Assembly: GCA_964401305.1 (NCBI GenBank)
Contig: CAYNYQ010000001.1
Span: 98 to 64,097, forward strand
Source: an uncultured Acetobacteraceae bacterium
Lineage (GTDB): Bacteria > Pseudomonadota > Alphaproteobacteria > Acetobacterales > Acetobacteraceae
DNA length: 64,000 nt
Direction: 5' to 3'
Shown: one piece after another, positions 3,126 to 14,932 of the stretch
Layout: every line of letters begins with the position of its first letter
How positions within the stretch are numbered: the stretch's first letter is position 1
Made by a program: the position numbers and the translations under genes
Notes under the pieces: model-generated
What the model saw: the letters and a program-made list of their open reading frames with translations, nothing else
What the model was told of the DNA's origin: nothing
The model's database searches: none

Positions 3126-4240
3126 GCGGTATCGAACAGGCCGATCTGGTCATTTGCCGGAGGCGGAAGATCGGCCAGCGTCATGCCGCTGCGCACGTCC
3201 ACCAGCCCGTGCCCGATGCGCTCGACGGAAAGCGCCACATAATCCGGATTGAGTTCGCAGCCGATGTAACGGCGTCCGTGTTTCAGCGCGACATAGCCGG
3301 TAGTTCCGGAGCCATTGAAAGGGTCAAGCACCAGCCCGCCCTTCGGCGCTCCGGCGAGGATGCAGGGTTCAATGAGGTCAGTAGGAAAGGTGGCGAAGTG
3401 CGCGCCCTTGTAGGGCTTCGTGCTGACCGTCCAGACGGAGCGTCGGTTACGCCAGCCGTTCGGCGCGGCCTGTAAGGACTGGCCGCCCTCGATGCGACTG
3501 CGATGGCGCGAGTAGGTGTCGGAGGCAAGGTCTTTGCGGTCATCGGCGACCTGCGGCTTCCACTGTTCCGCGTTACCCCGTGCGGTGCCATCGGCGTTCA
3601 GATAGGAGAGGCGCGCATCGCGCACGAACCCGTTGCCGCTTGGATGGCTGCTGACAGCGGGCTCTCTGATGGCCTCGTGGTCGTAGTAGTAGCGCGCCGA
3701 CTTGGTCAGCATGAAGATGTACTCGTGCGAGCGCGTACATCGGTCAGTGGTGGAATCCGGCATGGGGTTGGGCTTCGACCAGATGATGTCCTGACGCAGC
3801 CACCAGCCATCGGCCTGCAACGCAAGCGCTACGCGCCATGGGATGCCGATTAGGTCTTTCTGTTTGAGGCCGTCCTGTTTGATGCTACCCGTGCGCGTCT
3901 TCTTATGGGGGTGCGCCGCGATCTGACGTGCGGAGATAACAGAGCGGTCGGCCATCTGGCCAGTACGGCCTTGTGCGCCCCATGATCCAGCGTAGCTGTC
4001 CCCAAGGTTCAGCCATACTGTGCCATCGTCGGCCAACACGTCGCGCACGCAGCGAAACACCTCGACCATCTTGGCCACATAGGCATCGGGCGTTTCTTCC
4101 AAGCCGATCTGGCCGTCGCATCCGTAGTCGCGCAGACCGAAGTATGGGGGCGACGTGACGCAGGTGTTTACCCGCGCACCTTCGGCGGCGAGGCGCTTCA
4201 GCGTGTCACGGCAGTCGCCTTGATAGATTTTGGCATCCAT
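3122..4240 (-). CDS. beta-class DNA methyltransferase, SPPY motif (N4-cytosine or N6-adenine)
   Basis: Internal ATG at 4240 (MDAKIYQGDC). Motif IV TSPPY is N-terminal and motif I VLDPFNGSGTTG is C-terminal, the PF01555-like circular order. The upstream in-frame extension has no support. Confidence 0.85.
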   Translation of the reverse strand: MDAKIYQGDCRDTLKRLAAEGARVNTCVTSPPYFGLRDYGCDGQIGLEETPDAYVAKMVEVFRCVRDVLADDGTVWLNLGDSYAGSWGAQGRTGQMADRSVISARQIAAHPHKKTRTGSIKQDGLKQKDLIGIPWRVALALQADGWWLRQDIIWSKPNPMPDSTTDRCTRSHEYIFMLTKSARYYYDHEAIREPAVSSHPSGNGFVRDARLSYLNADGTARGNAEQWKPQVADDRKDLASDTYSRHRSRIEGGQSLQAAPNGWRNRRSVWTVSTKPYKGAHFATFPTDLIEPCILAGAPKGGLVLDPFNGSGTTGYVALKHGRRYIGCELNPDYVALSVERIGHGLVDVRSGMTLADLPPPANDQIGLFDTA

Positions 4241-10979: not shown

Positions 10980-11057
10980 TTAACCCCCCTTTATTATTGT
11001 TGAACGTCAAGTATAGATACCATAAATAGTCTAACGCGCAACTGAAAGCGGATACGG

Positions 11058-11282
11058 ATGGTTGCCCCCTCCCCTGCCCCGTCGCAGCTTTTCCCCGGTG
11101 TGACGATCGAAGCCGATGGCAGCCTGCGCTACACCGGCGGCGGCGTGGCGTCGGTCGGATACGTCAACTGGGACGCGGCTGAGCGCGGCGCGGTGCTCGA
11201 CGGCATTTTCACGCCGGAAGCGCTACGCAAGCTCGCCGAGCACATGGAGCGGCACATGAAAGGCCGCGGACAGGCCGGGTGA
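11058..11282 (+). CDS. hypothetical protein
   Basis: 74 aa with an ATG start. Its stop overlaps the GTG start of the next gene. Confidence 0.5.
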   Translation: MVAPSPAPSQLFPGVTIEADGSLRYTGGGVASVGYVNWDAAERGAVLDGIFTPEALRKLAEHMERHMKGRGQAG

Positions 11283-11692
11283 GGCCCCCTCCCCTCATCG
11301 CCGCTCTCGGCGGCATCCTCGCCTGGCTGTGGCGCGCGCTGTTCGGCCCACGGCTGCCGCACGGCTGGTCGGCCGCGTTCATCGCCTCCGATGACTTCCT
11401 GCGCACGCGCCAGTGGGCAGCGGTGCGCTACGAGGCGCTACGCGCGAATGACGGTCGCTGTGAACTCTGCGGACGCGGCAGGCATGAAGGCGTCCGGCTC
11501 AACGTCGACCACATCCAGCCGCGGCATAAGGCCCCTCACCTCGCCCTCACCTTGAACAACCTGCAGGTCCTCTGCGGCGGTGAGGGTGGCTGCAATTCCG
11601 GCAAGGGCGGGCGCCATCATGATGACTGGCGCTCGCCGGAGCATCCGCACCGGCCCCGGCGGCTGCGGCTACGCTTCAGGCGCTCGGTATGA
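11279..11692 (+). CDS. HNH endonuclease
   Basis: CELCG....VDHIQPRHK....NLQVLC..C.N.GKG is the classical HNHc pattern. Confidence 0.75.
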   Translation: MRPPPLIAALGGILAWLWRALFGPRLPHGWSAAFIASDDFLRTRQWAAVRYEALRANDGRCELCGRGRHEGVRLNVDHIQPRHKAPHLALTLNNLQVLCGGEGGCNSGKGGRHHDDWRSPEHPHRPRRLRLRFRRSV

Positions 11693-11749
11693 CCGTCCGA
11701 CCGTCGTTCGGTAGAACGGTAGCACAGTTTATCTAGTCATACGTCCGAC
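11687..11749. repeat. left cluster of GTATGAC / GTCCGAC repeats (centromere-like)
   Basis: GTATGACCGTCCGAC at 11687..11701 and GTCATACGTCCGAC at 11736..11749. The same words occur in the 12842..13277 array. Confidence 0.5.
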
Positions 11750-12185
11750 GGCGGCGCTGTGGCTGAAGCTCGGACGGTGGCACGGGGTAACCAGCTTCGT
11801 GAAACACGCGCGCGACGAGGCGACGCAGACCCCCCTCCCCTTCCGCCGCCTCGGCCAGCATTTTGGCAAACGGCTTCGATGCCTTGAACGACATCATAAG
11901 GACAGGCTCGGCTGCCGGCTTCGTCGCAGGCGGCAACGGCGCAGGCGGCGGCTGAACCGCAACGGGTGCCGGTGGGATGATCGGCTCCGTGGGCGGAGGC
12001 GGCGGAGCAGTCACGACGGGCTGCGGCGCAGGCGGCTCGGGCGGAGCGGCTGGCGGTGGTGACGTCGGAATCAGCGTCGCCGCTATGGGTGCGAGGGCCG
12101 CTGCCAACTCCTTGCTCGATGGCCGTGGCGGAGCCTGACCCCCCTCCCCCGGCTCCTCAATGCGCTTGGGCTTGAACGCGGCCAT
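11733..12185 (-). CDS. ParA partner protein (ParB/ParG-like, Pro-rich)
   Basis: 150 aa immediately downstream of parA, with a 1-nt overlap. Long Pro/Ala-rich spacer, then a short basic C-terminal domain. The call rests on position only. Confidence 0.45.
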   Translation of the reverse strand: MAAFKPKRIEEPGEGGQAPPRPSSKELAAALAPIAATLIPTSPPPAAPPEPPAPQPVVTAPPPPPTEPIIPPAPVAVQPPPAPLPPATKPAAEPVLMMSFKASKPFAKMLAEAAEGEGGLRRLVARVFHEAGYPVPPSELQPQRRRRTYD

Positions 12186-12841
12186 CAGGCAGCCCTCCGC
12201 GCGGGCTTGGCTGGTATCGCGCCGAGGCCGATCAGCTCGTCCACGACCTTCCCGGTATGCAGGCCGATTTTGCCGGACATCGGCACCTTCCCGGACAGCG
12301 TCAGCTTCCCGAAGTCGGACAGGTCGGGAAAGAAGTTGTCCAGCACGGGCGCGCCCGACGCCTCGAGGTCGGCCAGCACGGCGCGCTCGACCAGTCCCTT
12401 CGGATTCCAGCGTGACCGCACAATGGCCACCGGGATCTCCCGGCGGCTCGCTTTGGCGAAGGAGCCGACCTGCCGCACCATCCGCATCGCTTCCACCGTG
12501 CTTGCCCGGTCGGGCATGACCGGGACCAGCACGTAATCGGCGGTGCCGGAGGCGAAGGCGGCAGTGGTGTTGCCGAAGCCCGCCGTGTCGATGATCACCA
12601 CGTCATGCTCGGCGGCCTGCTGCTGGGCATGATCGACGATCTCGTCCTGCCGCACCTCAGCGCTGCAGTCGAACGGCGCACCCTCATAGATGCGGTGCCA
12701 TTGCGCGAAGCAGGCATTCGGATCGGCGTCGATGACGGCCACCCGGTATCGCATCGCGGCCAGCGTCGCCGACAGCACCATGCTCAGCGTCGACTTGGCG
12801 GTGCCCCCCTTCCCCGAGGCCACCGTGATGATACGTCCCAT
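12185..12841 (-). CDS. parA: ParA-family partition ATPase
   Basis: MGRIITVASGKGGTAKST deviant Walker A, VAVIDADPN, and VVIIDTAGF. Confidence 0.85.
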   Translation of the reverse strand: MGRIITVASGKGGTAKSTLSMVLSATLAAMRYRVAVIDADPNACFAQWHRIYEGAPFDCSAEVRQDEIVDHAQQQAAEHDVVIIDTAGFGNTTAAFASGTADYVLVPVMPDRASTVEAMRMVRQVGSFAKASRREIPVAIVRSRWNPKGLVERAVLADLEASGAPVLDNFFPDLSDFGKLTLSGKVPMSGKIGLHTGKVVDELIGLGAIPAKPARRAA

Positions 12842-13277
12842 AGAAGTCCCCCGTCGGACGGTATGACCGTACCCCTCGGTCCGACCGTACCCCTGTAACT
12901 CGTCGGACCATAAAACCGGGCCGACGGTCGGATCAATCTTTCTGGCCGACGGTCAGACGGTTCTACGGCGTATGGTCATTCGAGCCACACCGAAGGACGG
13001 TATGACCGAAAGACCGACAGACCATAGATCGGTCAAGACGGGGTGATGGTATTACAGTAACTCGGTGAGACGGTCGGACCCGTCGGACCGTCCTGCGGTC
13101 TGACCGCTCTGCCAGTAGGACTGTCGCTCCGGAATGACCGGTATTACGTTTGCCGTCAGACAAGTACGTCGGTATGACGGGTCCGACTGTCAGACGTGCC
13201 TTGAGCGATAACCCCTGACAGGTATGACCACCGCAATGTCGAACCGATCGGACCGTCGGACCGTATGACGGATGCCG
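12842..13277. repeat. centromere-like (parS/iteron) repeat array
   Basis: 436 bp with no credible ORF. At least 11 exact GTCNGAC heptamers and 5 GTATGAC words. A 19-mer CCGTCGGACGGTATGACCG (12851) recurs as CCGTCGGACCGTATGACGG (13253). Confidence 0.65.
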
Positions 13278-13691
13278 TCAAGTGCCTGCAAGTTCTTTAA
13301 ATGACAGTACGAGCGGATCGGTACGAGGCGCATGGACCTCGCCCCACTGCTCTTCCGAATACACCTGCACGAAGTCCACCTGACCCCGGCGGAACGCCTC
13401 CACCAGTCCGGCCAGATTGTATCCGGTCACCTGCACCCGGACGTCCCGACACTGCAGCCAGACCCAAGCGACATGGCACTGCCCGGCATCGGCCTCCTCC
13501 GCCGCGTAGCCGACGCTGCGGATCTCGGCGATCGGAACCAGCAGCCCTCCCGCCGGCTCGCCGCGGCCGGGGAAGGGGGCGTCGCGGAACTCCACCATGA
13601 CGCTGTCCGGGTGCTCCCGGCCCCATGGCCGGTAGGGCACAGCCTCGGCCCGGCCCTGCCTCTCCAGCCAAGCGGGAAAGCTCTCCGACAT
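13278..13691 (-). CDS. hypothetical protein
   Basis: 137 aa with an ATG start; no motif recognised. Confidence 0.5.
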   Translation of the reverse strand: MSESFPAWLERQGRAEAVPYRPWGREHPDSVMVEFRDAPFPGRGEPAGGLLVPIAEIRSVGYAAEEADAGQCHVAWVWLQCRDVRVQVTGYNLAGLVEAFRRGQVDFVQVYSEEQWGEVHAPRTDPLVLSFKELAGT

Positions 13692-13800
13692 CGCCGCACC
13701 TCCTGCGGTAGCGTAGCACGGCCCGGGGCAGATCGGCGTCGCATCAAGGCGGCATAAATGCGGAAGCCCTTATTTGACGCCGTCACGCAATCACGCCACA

Positions 13801-13832
13801 AAGGTTCGCAAGAACCTGTAACTGCACCTTTA
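13801..13832 (+). other. candidate oriT (MOBQ type)
   Basis: Inverted repeat AGGTTC-gcaa-GAACCT followed by GTAACTGCACCTT, 15 nt upstream of the relaxase ATG. It resembles the RSF1010 hairpin plus the TAAGTGCGCCCT nick region as I recall it. Confidence 0.45.
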
Positions 13833-13846
13833 GAAAAACCACTCTT

Positions 13847-14932
13847 ATGCCTGAAGCTGCCTTCTACCGCAGCGAGTTCAAGAACCACTCCCGGCGCAGC
13901 CCGCTTTCACCGGAGGCTGCTGCTGCTTACCGGACCGGCTCGAAGTCGGTGGTGAGCCACAGCCCGATCCGCAACATTGCTTACCGCTCCGGGTCCGCCC
14001 TTTTCGACGAGCAGGAGCAGACCGGACACGATTACACGAACCGGGCGCGGCGGATCATTGAGCGCAGCGCCATCTGGGCCCCACCTGGCGCTCCTGACTG
14101 GGCCACTGACCGCCAGCGGCTATGGACCGAGGCGCTGAAGCTCGAGACCCGCAAGAACGCCCGGTGGATGAAGGAGAACATCCTCACCCTCGACTATGGC
14201 CTGAACCGCGACCAGCGATGGGCGGCGGTCGAGAAGTATGCCCGCGACGCCTTCGTCCGGCGCGGCATCATCGTCGATGCCTCGATGCACCGCTACGGCG
14301 CGCTGGTCGAGCCGACCGACGAGGACTTCGCCGAGAAGCTGGCGGAGTGGCAGGGCAGGGGGCATCCCTTCCTCGACGAGGCCACGGCGCTGAAGACGGA
14401 CGCGGTGCATGTCATGGTCGAACGTGCCAAGGACGGCACGCTGCGGGGCTACCGGCTCTACCAGCCGCACGCGCATCTCTCTCTGCTGACGCGCTCGATC
14501 GGCCCCGGCGGCTTCGGGCCGAAGCTGGAGATGATGAACCAGAAGCGCCAACTATTCCTCTGGCGTCAGGCGTGGGAGCAGCACCTCAACGAGGCGCTCG
14601 CCGCCGCCGGGAGCACGGCGCGGGCGGATTGCCGCAGCTACTTCGCGCAGGGCATCGACAAGAAGCCGACCAGGCCGCACGGGCTGGCCAAGCGCCTGAA
14701 AGCCCCGTCGGAAAAAATGCAGAAGCGCATCGCCGAGAACCACGACGTCAGTAGCTGGAATTACGCGCTCGATGTCGCGCGGCGCTCGGCGCGGCTGGTC
14801 GGCCCCATCGCTGGCGCGCTGGCGACGGGTAATCCCATCATGCTCGGCGTGGCGGTAGGTAACGCCGTGGCGCAGGTCTCGGCAGGGCAGGGGAGGGACC
14901 GCCTGCCGCCGCGCTCTCCCGGGGTCTCCTGA
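13847..14932 (+). CDS. MobA/MobL-family (MOBQ-like) relaxase
   Basis: AYRSGSALFDEQEQTGHDYTNR, APDWATDRQRLWTEALKLE, IVDASMH, QPHAHLSLL, GFGPKLEMMN, WRQAWEQHLNEAL and CRSYFAQGI follow the MobA/MobL block order. Confidence 0.8.
   Translation: MPEAAFYRSEFKNHSRRSPLSPEAAAAYRTGSKSVVSHSPIRNIAYRSGSALFDEQEQTGHDYTNRARRIIERSAIWAPPGAPDWATDRQRLWTEALKLETRKNARWMKENILTLDYGLNRDQRWAAVEKYARDAFVRRGIIVDASMHRYGALVEPTDEDFAEKLAEWQGRGHPFLDEATALKTDAVHVMVERAKDGTLRGYRLYQPHAHLSLLTRSIGPGGFGPKLEMMNQKRQLFLWRQAWEQHLNEALAAAGSTARADCRSYFAQGIDKKPTRPHGLAKRLKAPSEKMQKRIAENHDVSSWNYALDVARRSARLVGPIAGALATGNPIMLGVAVGNAVAQVSAGQGRDRLPPRSPGVS

Follow-up and report, generated by a model that had tools for sequence, protein, structure and literature searches.

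A phased array of short palindromic words upstream of parA: a probable type Ib centromere on an acetobacteral phage-plasmid

INTRODUCTION

What does a dense array of short palindromic DNA words, placed immediately ahead of a parA gene, do for the element that carries it? The question arises from a 64-kb window (the whole stretch of DNA analyzed here, bases 98-64097 of contig C1), which belongs to a host assembly of 6.0 Mb in 881 contigs. An earlier note on this DNA had singled out the interval between parA and the next gene, in which the heptamers GTCNGAC and GTATGAC recur, and had offered two readings: a centromere bound by the partner protein of ParA or, alternatively, the iterons of a second replication origin. 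Here the words are counted against the whole assembly, resolved into a common unit, followed through related loci, and set beside the partner protein that may read them.

THE ELEMENT AND ITS OWN LIKELY REPLICATION ORIGIN

Contig C1 is a phage-plasmid. A terminal direct overlap of 55 bp closes it into a circle of 65,088 bp that carries virion genes (terminase, portal, major capsid, and tape-measure) together with genes for RepA_C and ParA, and a search with PF00589 returned no tyrosine integrase on C1. A MobQ-type relaxase, ArdC, and SSB are also encoded. The RepA_C gene spans the circular junction, its 3′ part occupying positions 1-411 of the window on the plus strand. Upstream of this gene, the region C1 64467-64610 holds three iterons TTGGACYCYKCTCAC (at C1 64467, 64513, and 64568), a perfect DnaA box TTATCCACA at C1 64494, and an AT-rich stretch; iterons and box together take up C1 64467-64582, a little past the end of the window. 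This region, 12 kb from the array, is likely to be the plasmid origin of C1; its iterons resemble those beside RepA_C in one of the related loci introduced below (L024).

Several further features of C1 may be recorded here. Adjoining repA on the minus strand, positions 428-1444 encode another HUH-type nuclease besides the MobQ relaxase, 338 aa long and bearing a TrwC relaxase domain (5.8e-40). Immediately ahead of the MobQ-type relaxase gene (13847-14932), at 13795-13830, lie an inverted repeat (AGGTTC-GCAA-GAACCT) and, after it, TGTAACTGCACCTT, an arrangement that we take to resemble the oriT hairpin and nick region of RSF1010; the oriT-like sequence is conserved in a Muricoccus plasmid (L002), around 1955-1985. 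C1 has a GC content of 65%, compared with 73% for the assembly, and is the longest contig of a very fragmented bin. Its assignment to this host rests on binning, though the closest ParA comes from a Roseomonadaceae plasmid.

WORD COUNTS IN THE ARRAY AND ACROSS THE ASSEMBLY

The array occupies 12842-13277, directly before parA with respect to the minus strand from which parA is read, and has a GC content of 58.9% (window, 65.3%). All 11 GTCNGAC sites that had been listed by eye are present (12853, 12879, 12902, 12952, 13073, 13082, 13098, 13155, 13181, 13189, and 13255), and they make up 11 of the 31 copies in the 64-kb window. The companion list for GTATGAC holds at 12861, 13172, 13222, and 13263 and needs one correction, the site given as 13010 lying at 13000; a single further copy occurs in the window outside the array, at 11687. 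A composite 19-mer at 12851-12869 had been reported to recur with two changes at 13253-13271, as it does, and a third copy, also with two changes, had been missed at 12990-13008. The same words had been noticed on the other side of the operon, and they are indeed there: GTATGAC at 11687, GTCCGAC at 11695, GTCATAC at 11736, and GTCCGAC at 11743.

The concentration of these words is unique in the genome. Across the whole 6.0-Mb assembly the two words number 749, or 0.054 per 436 bp; the array has 15-16 exact words where about 0.05 would be expected. The densest 436-bp window in the array has 15 words, and outside the par locus no such window in the 6-Mb assembly has more than three. The possibility that the words might prove equally dense elsewhere in the host, which would have counted against a centromere, is clearly contradicted by this count.

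The description of the interval as free of ORFs is fair. The lone internal ORF (12963-13163, minus strand, 66 aa) opens with TTG and has a GC content of 0.51 at third positions, where real genes of this DNA have about 0.85. An Rfam scan of 11000-14500 gave matches at chance level only.

A PSEUDO-PALINDROMIC UNIT ON AN 8.2-BP LATTICE

GTCNGAC and GTATGAC are versions of one pseudo-palindromic unit, S-GT[C/A]-N-[G/T]AC-S, centered on N: the former is its symmetric form, and in GTATGAC/GTCATAC one half-site is altered. The unit was derived from a weight matrix fitted on ten related arrays. An unseeded motif search settled on a 4-bp G-W-C-N periodicity, because GTC and GAC half-sites alternate, and a seeded 10-bp model was used instead. 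Scored with this matrix, the array contains 21 units at 9 bits or more, where 0.06 would be expected, and 26 at 7 bits or more.

The units are phased. Spacings between triplets of the same orientation peak at 8/9, 16/17, 24/25, and 32-34 bp, and over 410 bp the unit centers fit a period of 8.2 bp with a narrow peak and a power of 15.6 of a possible 21, a value matched by none of 2,000 placements under a lenient null of random positions. The lattice so defined has about 50 positions in register, roughly half of which hold a recognizable unit; in relatives its period is 8.1-8.4 bp. The asymmetric words in the array run 13:3 in the direction of parA.

THE parA OPERON AND THE GENE UPSTREAM OF THE ARRAY

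The gene parA (12185-12841, minus strand) encodes a 218-aa ATPase that begins MGRIITVASGKGGTAKST, has a deviant Walker A motif (GKGGTAKS), and is without an N-terminal DNA-binding domain, a size in keeping with type Ib. The protein matches Pfam CbiA/AAA_31, a ParA-like PHROG, and, among NCBIfam models, ParA_partition (1.4e-28) and VirC1 (1.5e-12).

Directly after parA, and overlapping its stop by 1 nt, lies a partner gene (parB-like; 11733-12185, minus strand) for a protein of 150 aa, which matches no Pfam, NCBIfam, or PHROG family and no ParB-type model. A small gene in this place, other than that of an HTH/CTPase ParB, is again what a type Ib locus has. The protein has more than 120 homologues, every listed source name of which is "hypothetical protein." They share an N-terminal FKPK(R/K)I peptide, a variable proline-rich linker, and a near-invariant C-terminal block with the consensus LMMSFKASKxFAxxLAxAAExEGGLRRLxARVFxEAGYxVP. 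The partner here conforms, with an N-terminal FKPKRI peptide (MAAFKPKRIEEP), a proline-rich linker, and a C-terminal strand-helix-helix domain (LMMSFKAS...GGLRRLVARVF). At the nucleotide level, blastn of 11600-14000 against PLSDB and INPHARED found nothing, and tblastn with the whole partner and with its C-terminal domain found no member among 72,556 PLSDB plasmids or 50,697 phage records.

Several observations suggest what fold the C-terminal domain may adopt. AlphaFold models of the monomer show an extended segment followed by helices at 104-117 and 120-130, with the rest disordered. A profile search brought in more distant relatives of the form xVQINFRAS...GSTRRxxARLL, whose weak, subthreshold Pfam matches are dominated by ribbon-helix-helix (RHH) families: RHH_1 (three members, best 6e-4), and further Arc, NikA-like, CopG_antitoxin, and RHH_4. 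Sequence searches of the PDB with two profiles gave chance matches only, and Foldseek returned nothing below E = 3 for the full-length and C-terminal models, a null result that is expected because a small obligate dimer was modeled as a monomer. An extended segment and two helices fit an RHH monomer, and on these predictions the partner is probably an RHH protein.

A 137-aa gene (13278-13691) lies directly upstream of the array on the strand of parA and matches no Pfam, NCBIfam, or PHROG family. It is otherwise found only in the closest relative (L025), in the same place and frameshifted. Being confined to these two sequences, it is probably not a core part of the partition locus.

CONSERVATION OF THE WORDS AROUND parA AND ITS PARTNER

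Ten loci were compared, with ParA proteins 63-100% identical; they include the Muricoccus radiodurans plasmid (L002, 86%) and several metagenome contigs. In all ten, words cluster ahead of parA over 120-480 bp (4-16 exact words in 600 bp), and a second cluster, of 1-4 words per locus, lies between the end of the partner gene and 150 bp beyond it; the background elsewhere in these loci is about 3 words per 6.6 kb. GTCATAC, pooled over loci, is observed 40 times where 0.32 would be expected, with the core CGTCATACCG, and L020 carries four perfect tandem 8-bp units, CGTCATAC. The neighbors vary: RepA_C lies on either side or is absent, and an HTH_13 protein, transposases, or a relaxase may be present. 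That the words accompany parA and the partner gene through ten loci with such differing surroundings, always close ahead of parA and once more where the partner gene ends or beyond it, supports the proposal of a centromere for the partner of ParA.

Comparison of the window with its closest relative (L025, ParA 94% identical) shows good conservation over the ~150 bp of the array nearest parA; farther out the two cannot be aligned, yet words are equally frequent there. Selection thus seems, from this one comparison, to act on word density and not on exact sequence. Two side observations belong to the set of relatives. The Muricoccus plasmid was considered as a second phage-plasmid and rejected, no terminase homologue being found. 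At 4347-4998 of L027, parA matches in two overlapping pieces in different frames and is probably frameshifted; the partner gene there is intact.

The start-proximal end of the array carries a two-unit site, GTCGGAC-G-GTATGAC on the plus strand (12851-12869), 10-28 nt before the parA start codon, and all ten loci have a site 17-29 nt upstream of the start codon. Somewhat farther out, alignment of the ten upstream regions by eye reveals a shared promoter-like element: TTGAT(C/A), a spacer of about 17-19 nt, and a TATGGT/TATTAA-like box about 70-95 nt before the start codon, at a position conserved in the relatives. In the window (12907-12937, minus strand) it reads TTGATC (12937-12932), a spacer of 17-19 nt, and then TTTATGGT (12914-12907); a scan for sigma-70 and terminator consensus sequences reported no sites and did not flag it. 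Units overlap and follow this element, so binding of the partner should repress parA, as in other type Ib systems (PMC3074162), and part of the array may well serve also as the promoter/operator of parA. Short direct and inverted repeats upstream of the operon, overlapping a promoter-like element, are what type Ib centromeres have, and they are present in all ten loci.

On the far side of the operon, a putative downstream mini-centromere (11686-11750) comprises seven units at or after the end of the partner gene. Five stand in exact 8-bp register, starting at 11687, 11695, 11703, 11711, and 11719. The final codons of the partner gene itself, RRTYD-stop, make up an inverted pair of units, GTCATAC-GTCCGAC (11736-11749). 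This ending is near-invariant in the window (11733-11750) and nine relatives, its codons spelling one or two units (GTCGGAC-GTATGAC), and the degenerate unit accommodates synonymous changes such as TAC in place of TAT.

COVARIATION OF THE WORD WITH THE PARTNER PROTEIN

The strongest test available here of which protein reads the words is covariation of the word with the strand of the partner that is predicted to contact DNA. Partners with the strand LMMSFKAS go with GTMNKAC words. Where the strand is VQ(I/V)NF(Q/R)(A/G)S (L034, L035, L037, and L040), words of the GCTAGC/GCTATC type lie upstream of parA and GTMNKAC is absent; L036, with the strand VLVNFRAS, has CGTAAAG/CTTTACG words. All of these distant loci thus retain an array of words upstream of parA, and in L040, the one read downstream of the partner gene, GCTAGC-type words recur there too, preserving the flanking layout. 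L040 is the Roseomonas mucosa plasmid p2 (NZ_CP147882.1), whose partner homologue (3178-3486, after the annotated ParA) is missing from the gene table of the plasmid collection.

Because the word changes with the partner strand, the comparison points to the partner protein, and not to Rep or the relaxase, as the binder of the words. The shift of the word with the predicted strand, together with the type Ib features of the module, lends the centromere proposal its further support.

WEIGHING THE READINGS

Taken on these sequence comparisons, a type Ib ParA/ParB system on the 65-kb circular phage-plasmid very probably uses the array both as its main centromere and as its operator. The locus as a whole is most likely of type Ib, with a small ParA, a partner that is probably RHH, an upstream centromere/operator, and a downstream mini-centromere. 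C1 would also need a means of partition, being circular and carrying virion genes but, in the PF00589 search, no tyrosine integrase. The nearest competitor would keep the operator and drop the centromere: the partner would only regulate transcription, as an autorepressor or another transcription factor, and the array, as its extended operator, would take no part in segregation. Many RHH proteins do no more than repress transcription; in every locus the promoter-like element and the stretch leading up to the start codon are overlapped by units; and the proximal ~150 bp is the part best conserved between the window and L025. However, the array extends some 340 bp upstream beyond the promoter-like element, its distal sequence turns over while word density stays, and the second cluster comes after the operon, a place in which an operator would serve no obvious purpose. 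The partner gene, moreover, always follows that of ParA, and its product, in the manner of type Ib partners (PMC3074162), carries a conserved basic N-terminal peptide on a flexible tether. A purely regulatory array is therefore given only a slim chance.

The alternative raised in the earlier note fares worse: that the words are iterons of a second origin, where a Rep initiator would bind. Short intergenic repeats can be iterons, and in many relatives the array lies between RepA_C and parA; but the loci in which RepA_C is adjacent (L020, L022, L023, and L024) have separate 15-19-bp iterons beside it, which differ between lineages (ACCTCACCATTCCTCTCGG in L020, GGGAGCGATTACACGT in L023, and GTGAGCAGAGTCCAA in L024) while the GTMNKAC words stay constant. 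Arrays also occur away from rep genes: that of L025 has none adjacent, RepA_C lying ~2.6 kb beyond the partner gene; L028 keeps its array with no rep gene called in the locus; and the array of L029 is adjoined only by an HTH_13-domain gene. C1 has its own RepA_C, three iterons, and perfect DnaA box 12 kb away, and the words accompany the partner gene and change with the strand residues of its product. Within the array itself, neither a DnaA box (one mismatch allowed) nor an AT-rich stretch was found, the lowest GC of any 40-mer being 45%, and the cores are 7 bp long. A second origin is thus not borne out and has been largely refuted; we consider it very improbable. VirC2 has an RHH fold, and a VirC1/VirC2-like relaxosome helper, binding an "overdrive"-like enhancer to aid the MobQ relaxase at oriT, may also be envisioned. 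The match of ParA to the VirC1 model would suit such a helper, as would a MobA/MobL (MobQ) relaxase and oriT-like hairpin 570 bp from the array and the relaxase neighbor in common with the Muricoccus plasmid. Yet the VirC1 match (1.5e-12) is weaker than that to ParA_partition (1.4e-28), and the array and both genes are kept in L020, L022, L024, L025, L028, and L029, where no relaxase was called; linkage to a relaxase, found only in the window and L002, is not conserved. Assistance to conjugation accordingly appears as far-fetched as a second origin.

Recognition of the words by a restriction-modification system was also considered, and rejected: the words are clustered, phased, and tied to parA-parB.

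COMPARISON WITH KNOWN PARTITION SYSTEMS

In type Ib systems the centromere precedes the operon and is built of direct and inverted repeats, and the RHH proteins that bind these also repress the operon (PMC3074162, PMC5016525). By sequence and by analogy, the locus described here appears to match that design. The par2 locus of pB171 is similar in combining a small ParA and a small partner with repeats on both sides of the operon, the upstream set overlapping the promoter. Its unit is reportedly a 6-bp repeat; here the core is a 7-bp pseudo-palindrome on an 8.2-bp lattice, and the partners are without detectable sequence relation. Compared with pB171, in which parC1 lies upstream and parC2 downstream (PMC4270457), the present locus has a far longer upstream array (410 bp) and a far shorter downstream one (65 bp).

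The ParF-ParG-parH system of TP228 is likewise of type Ib, with short degenerate boxes at 8-bp spacing upstream that also mediate repression (PMC3130281, PMC5016525), and with an RHH partner that has a flexible N-terminal tail, as the partner here probably does on the predicted fold. TP228 parH is ~100 bp long, with degenerate ACTC-type tetramer boxes and AT-rich spacers (PMC3130281). In contrast, the words here are GC-rich, the array is about four times longer, and a second cluster follows the operon. ParG is said to comprise about 76 aa. Its N-terminal tail is short, at ~32 residues (PMC3074162), whereas the N-terminal region of the partner here has ~95 residues with a proline-rich linker. 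The ParB of pCXC100 (Leifsonia), without a DNA-binding motif by sequence, proved to be an RHH protein by structure and has a long flexible N-terminal region (PMC3074162); the partner here is also without a DNA-binding motif recognizable by sequence. The pCXC100 centromere consists of nine unspaced, direct, non-palindromic 9-bp repeats that are bound cooperatively (PMC3074162), in contrast to the 21-26 pseudo-palindromic units described here, which follow an 8.2-bp lattice in both orientations and leave many lattice positions unoccupied.

[quoted passage not shown] In the delta/omega system of pSM19035, an RHH dimer on contiguous short repeats, direct or inverted, acts as both centromere binder and repressor (PMC5016525, PMC9499535), with 7-bp heptads at three separate promoters and genes transcribed separately, as against one operon with flanking arrays. 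What sets the present locus apart is its word, a partner with no detectable sequence relation to those already known, and an upstream array that is long, sparsely occupied, and strongly unequal to the downstream one. At 410 bp, the upstream array is several times longer than the ~80-140 bp of type Ib centromeres already characterized.

A PROPOSED MECHANISM AND ITS IMPLICATIONS

A type Ib centromere of this kind could work as follows. Dimers of the partner would insert a two-stranded ribbon into the major groove to read the 7-bp core GT[C/A]-N-[G/T]AC and would load side by side at ~8.2 bp, about five units making four helical turns. Such loading would coat 12842-13277 with a long nucleoprotein filament and 11686-11750 with a short one. 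From these, the FKPKRI peptide, tethered by its long proline-rich linker, would stimulate nucleoid-bound ParA-ATP, and the resulting ParA gradients would move and space plasmid copies, so that the circle reaches both daughter cells and is stably inherited. The same binding would repress parA-parB, given that units cover the promoter-like element and the start-proximal region.

An extended form of this proposal, which we regard as tentative and rather unlikely, would have one continuous helical filament of ~400 bp on the 50-position, 8.2-bp lattice, with nucleation units and coupling to the gene end. The recognizable units could then serve as nucleation points, with the "empty" positions filled by cooperativity, and the invariant RRTYD-stop codons could themselves be bound, tying the end of the partner gene into the complex. 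If so, the filament would amount to a regional centromere for an RHH protein, several times larger than any characterized type Ib site, in a Pfam-less family common to ordinary Acetobacterales plasmids and a phage-plasmid.

For partition biology, the locus supplies a further example and no new principle. Its value is likely to lie in the family that it brings into view: a predicted function and DNA target can now be assigned to more than 120 "hypothetical proteins" without a Pfam or NCBIfam model. GTMNKAC on an 8.2-bp lattice becomes a precise candidate centromere word for Roseomonadaceae/Acetobacterales plasmids, which could serve in building stable vectors or in predicting incompatibility. 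A tailed phage-plasmid of this group, it would appear, took its inheritance module from ordinary plasmids.
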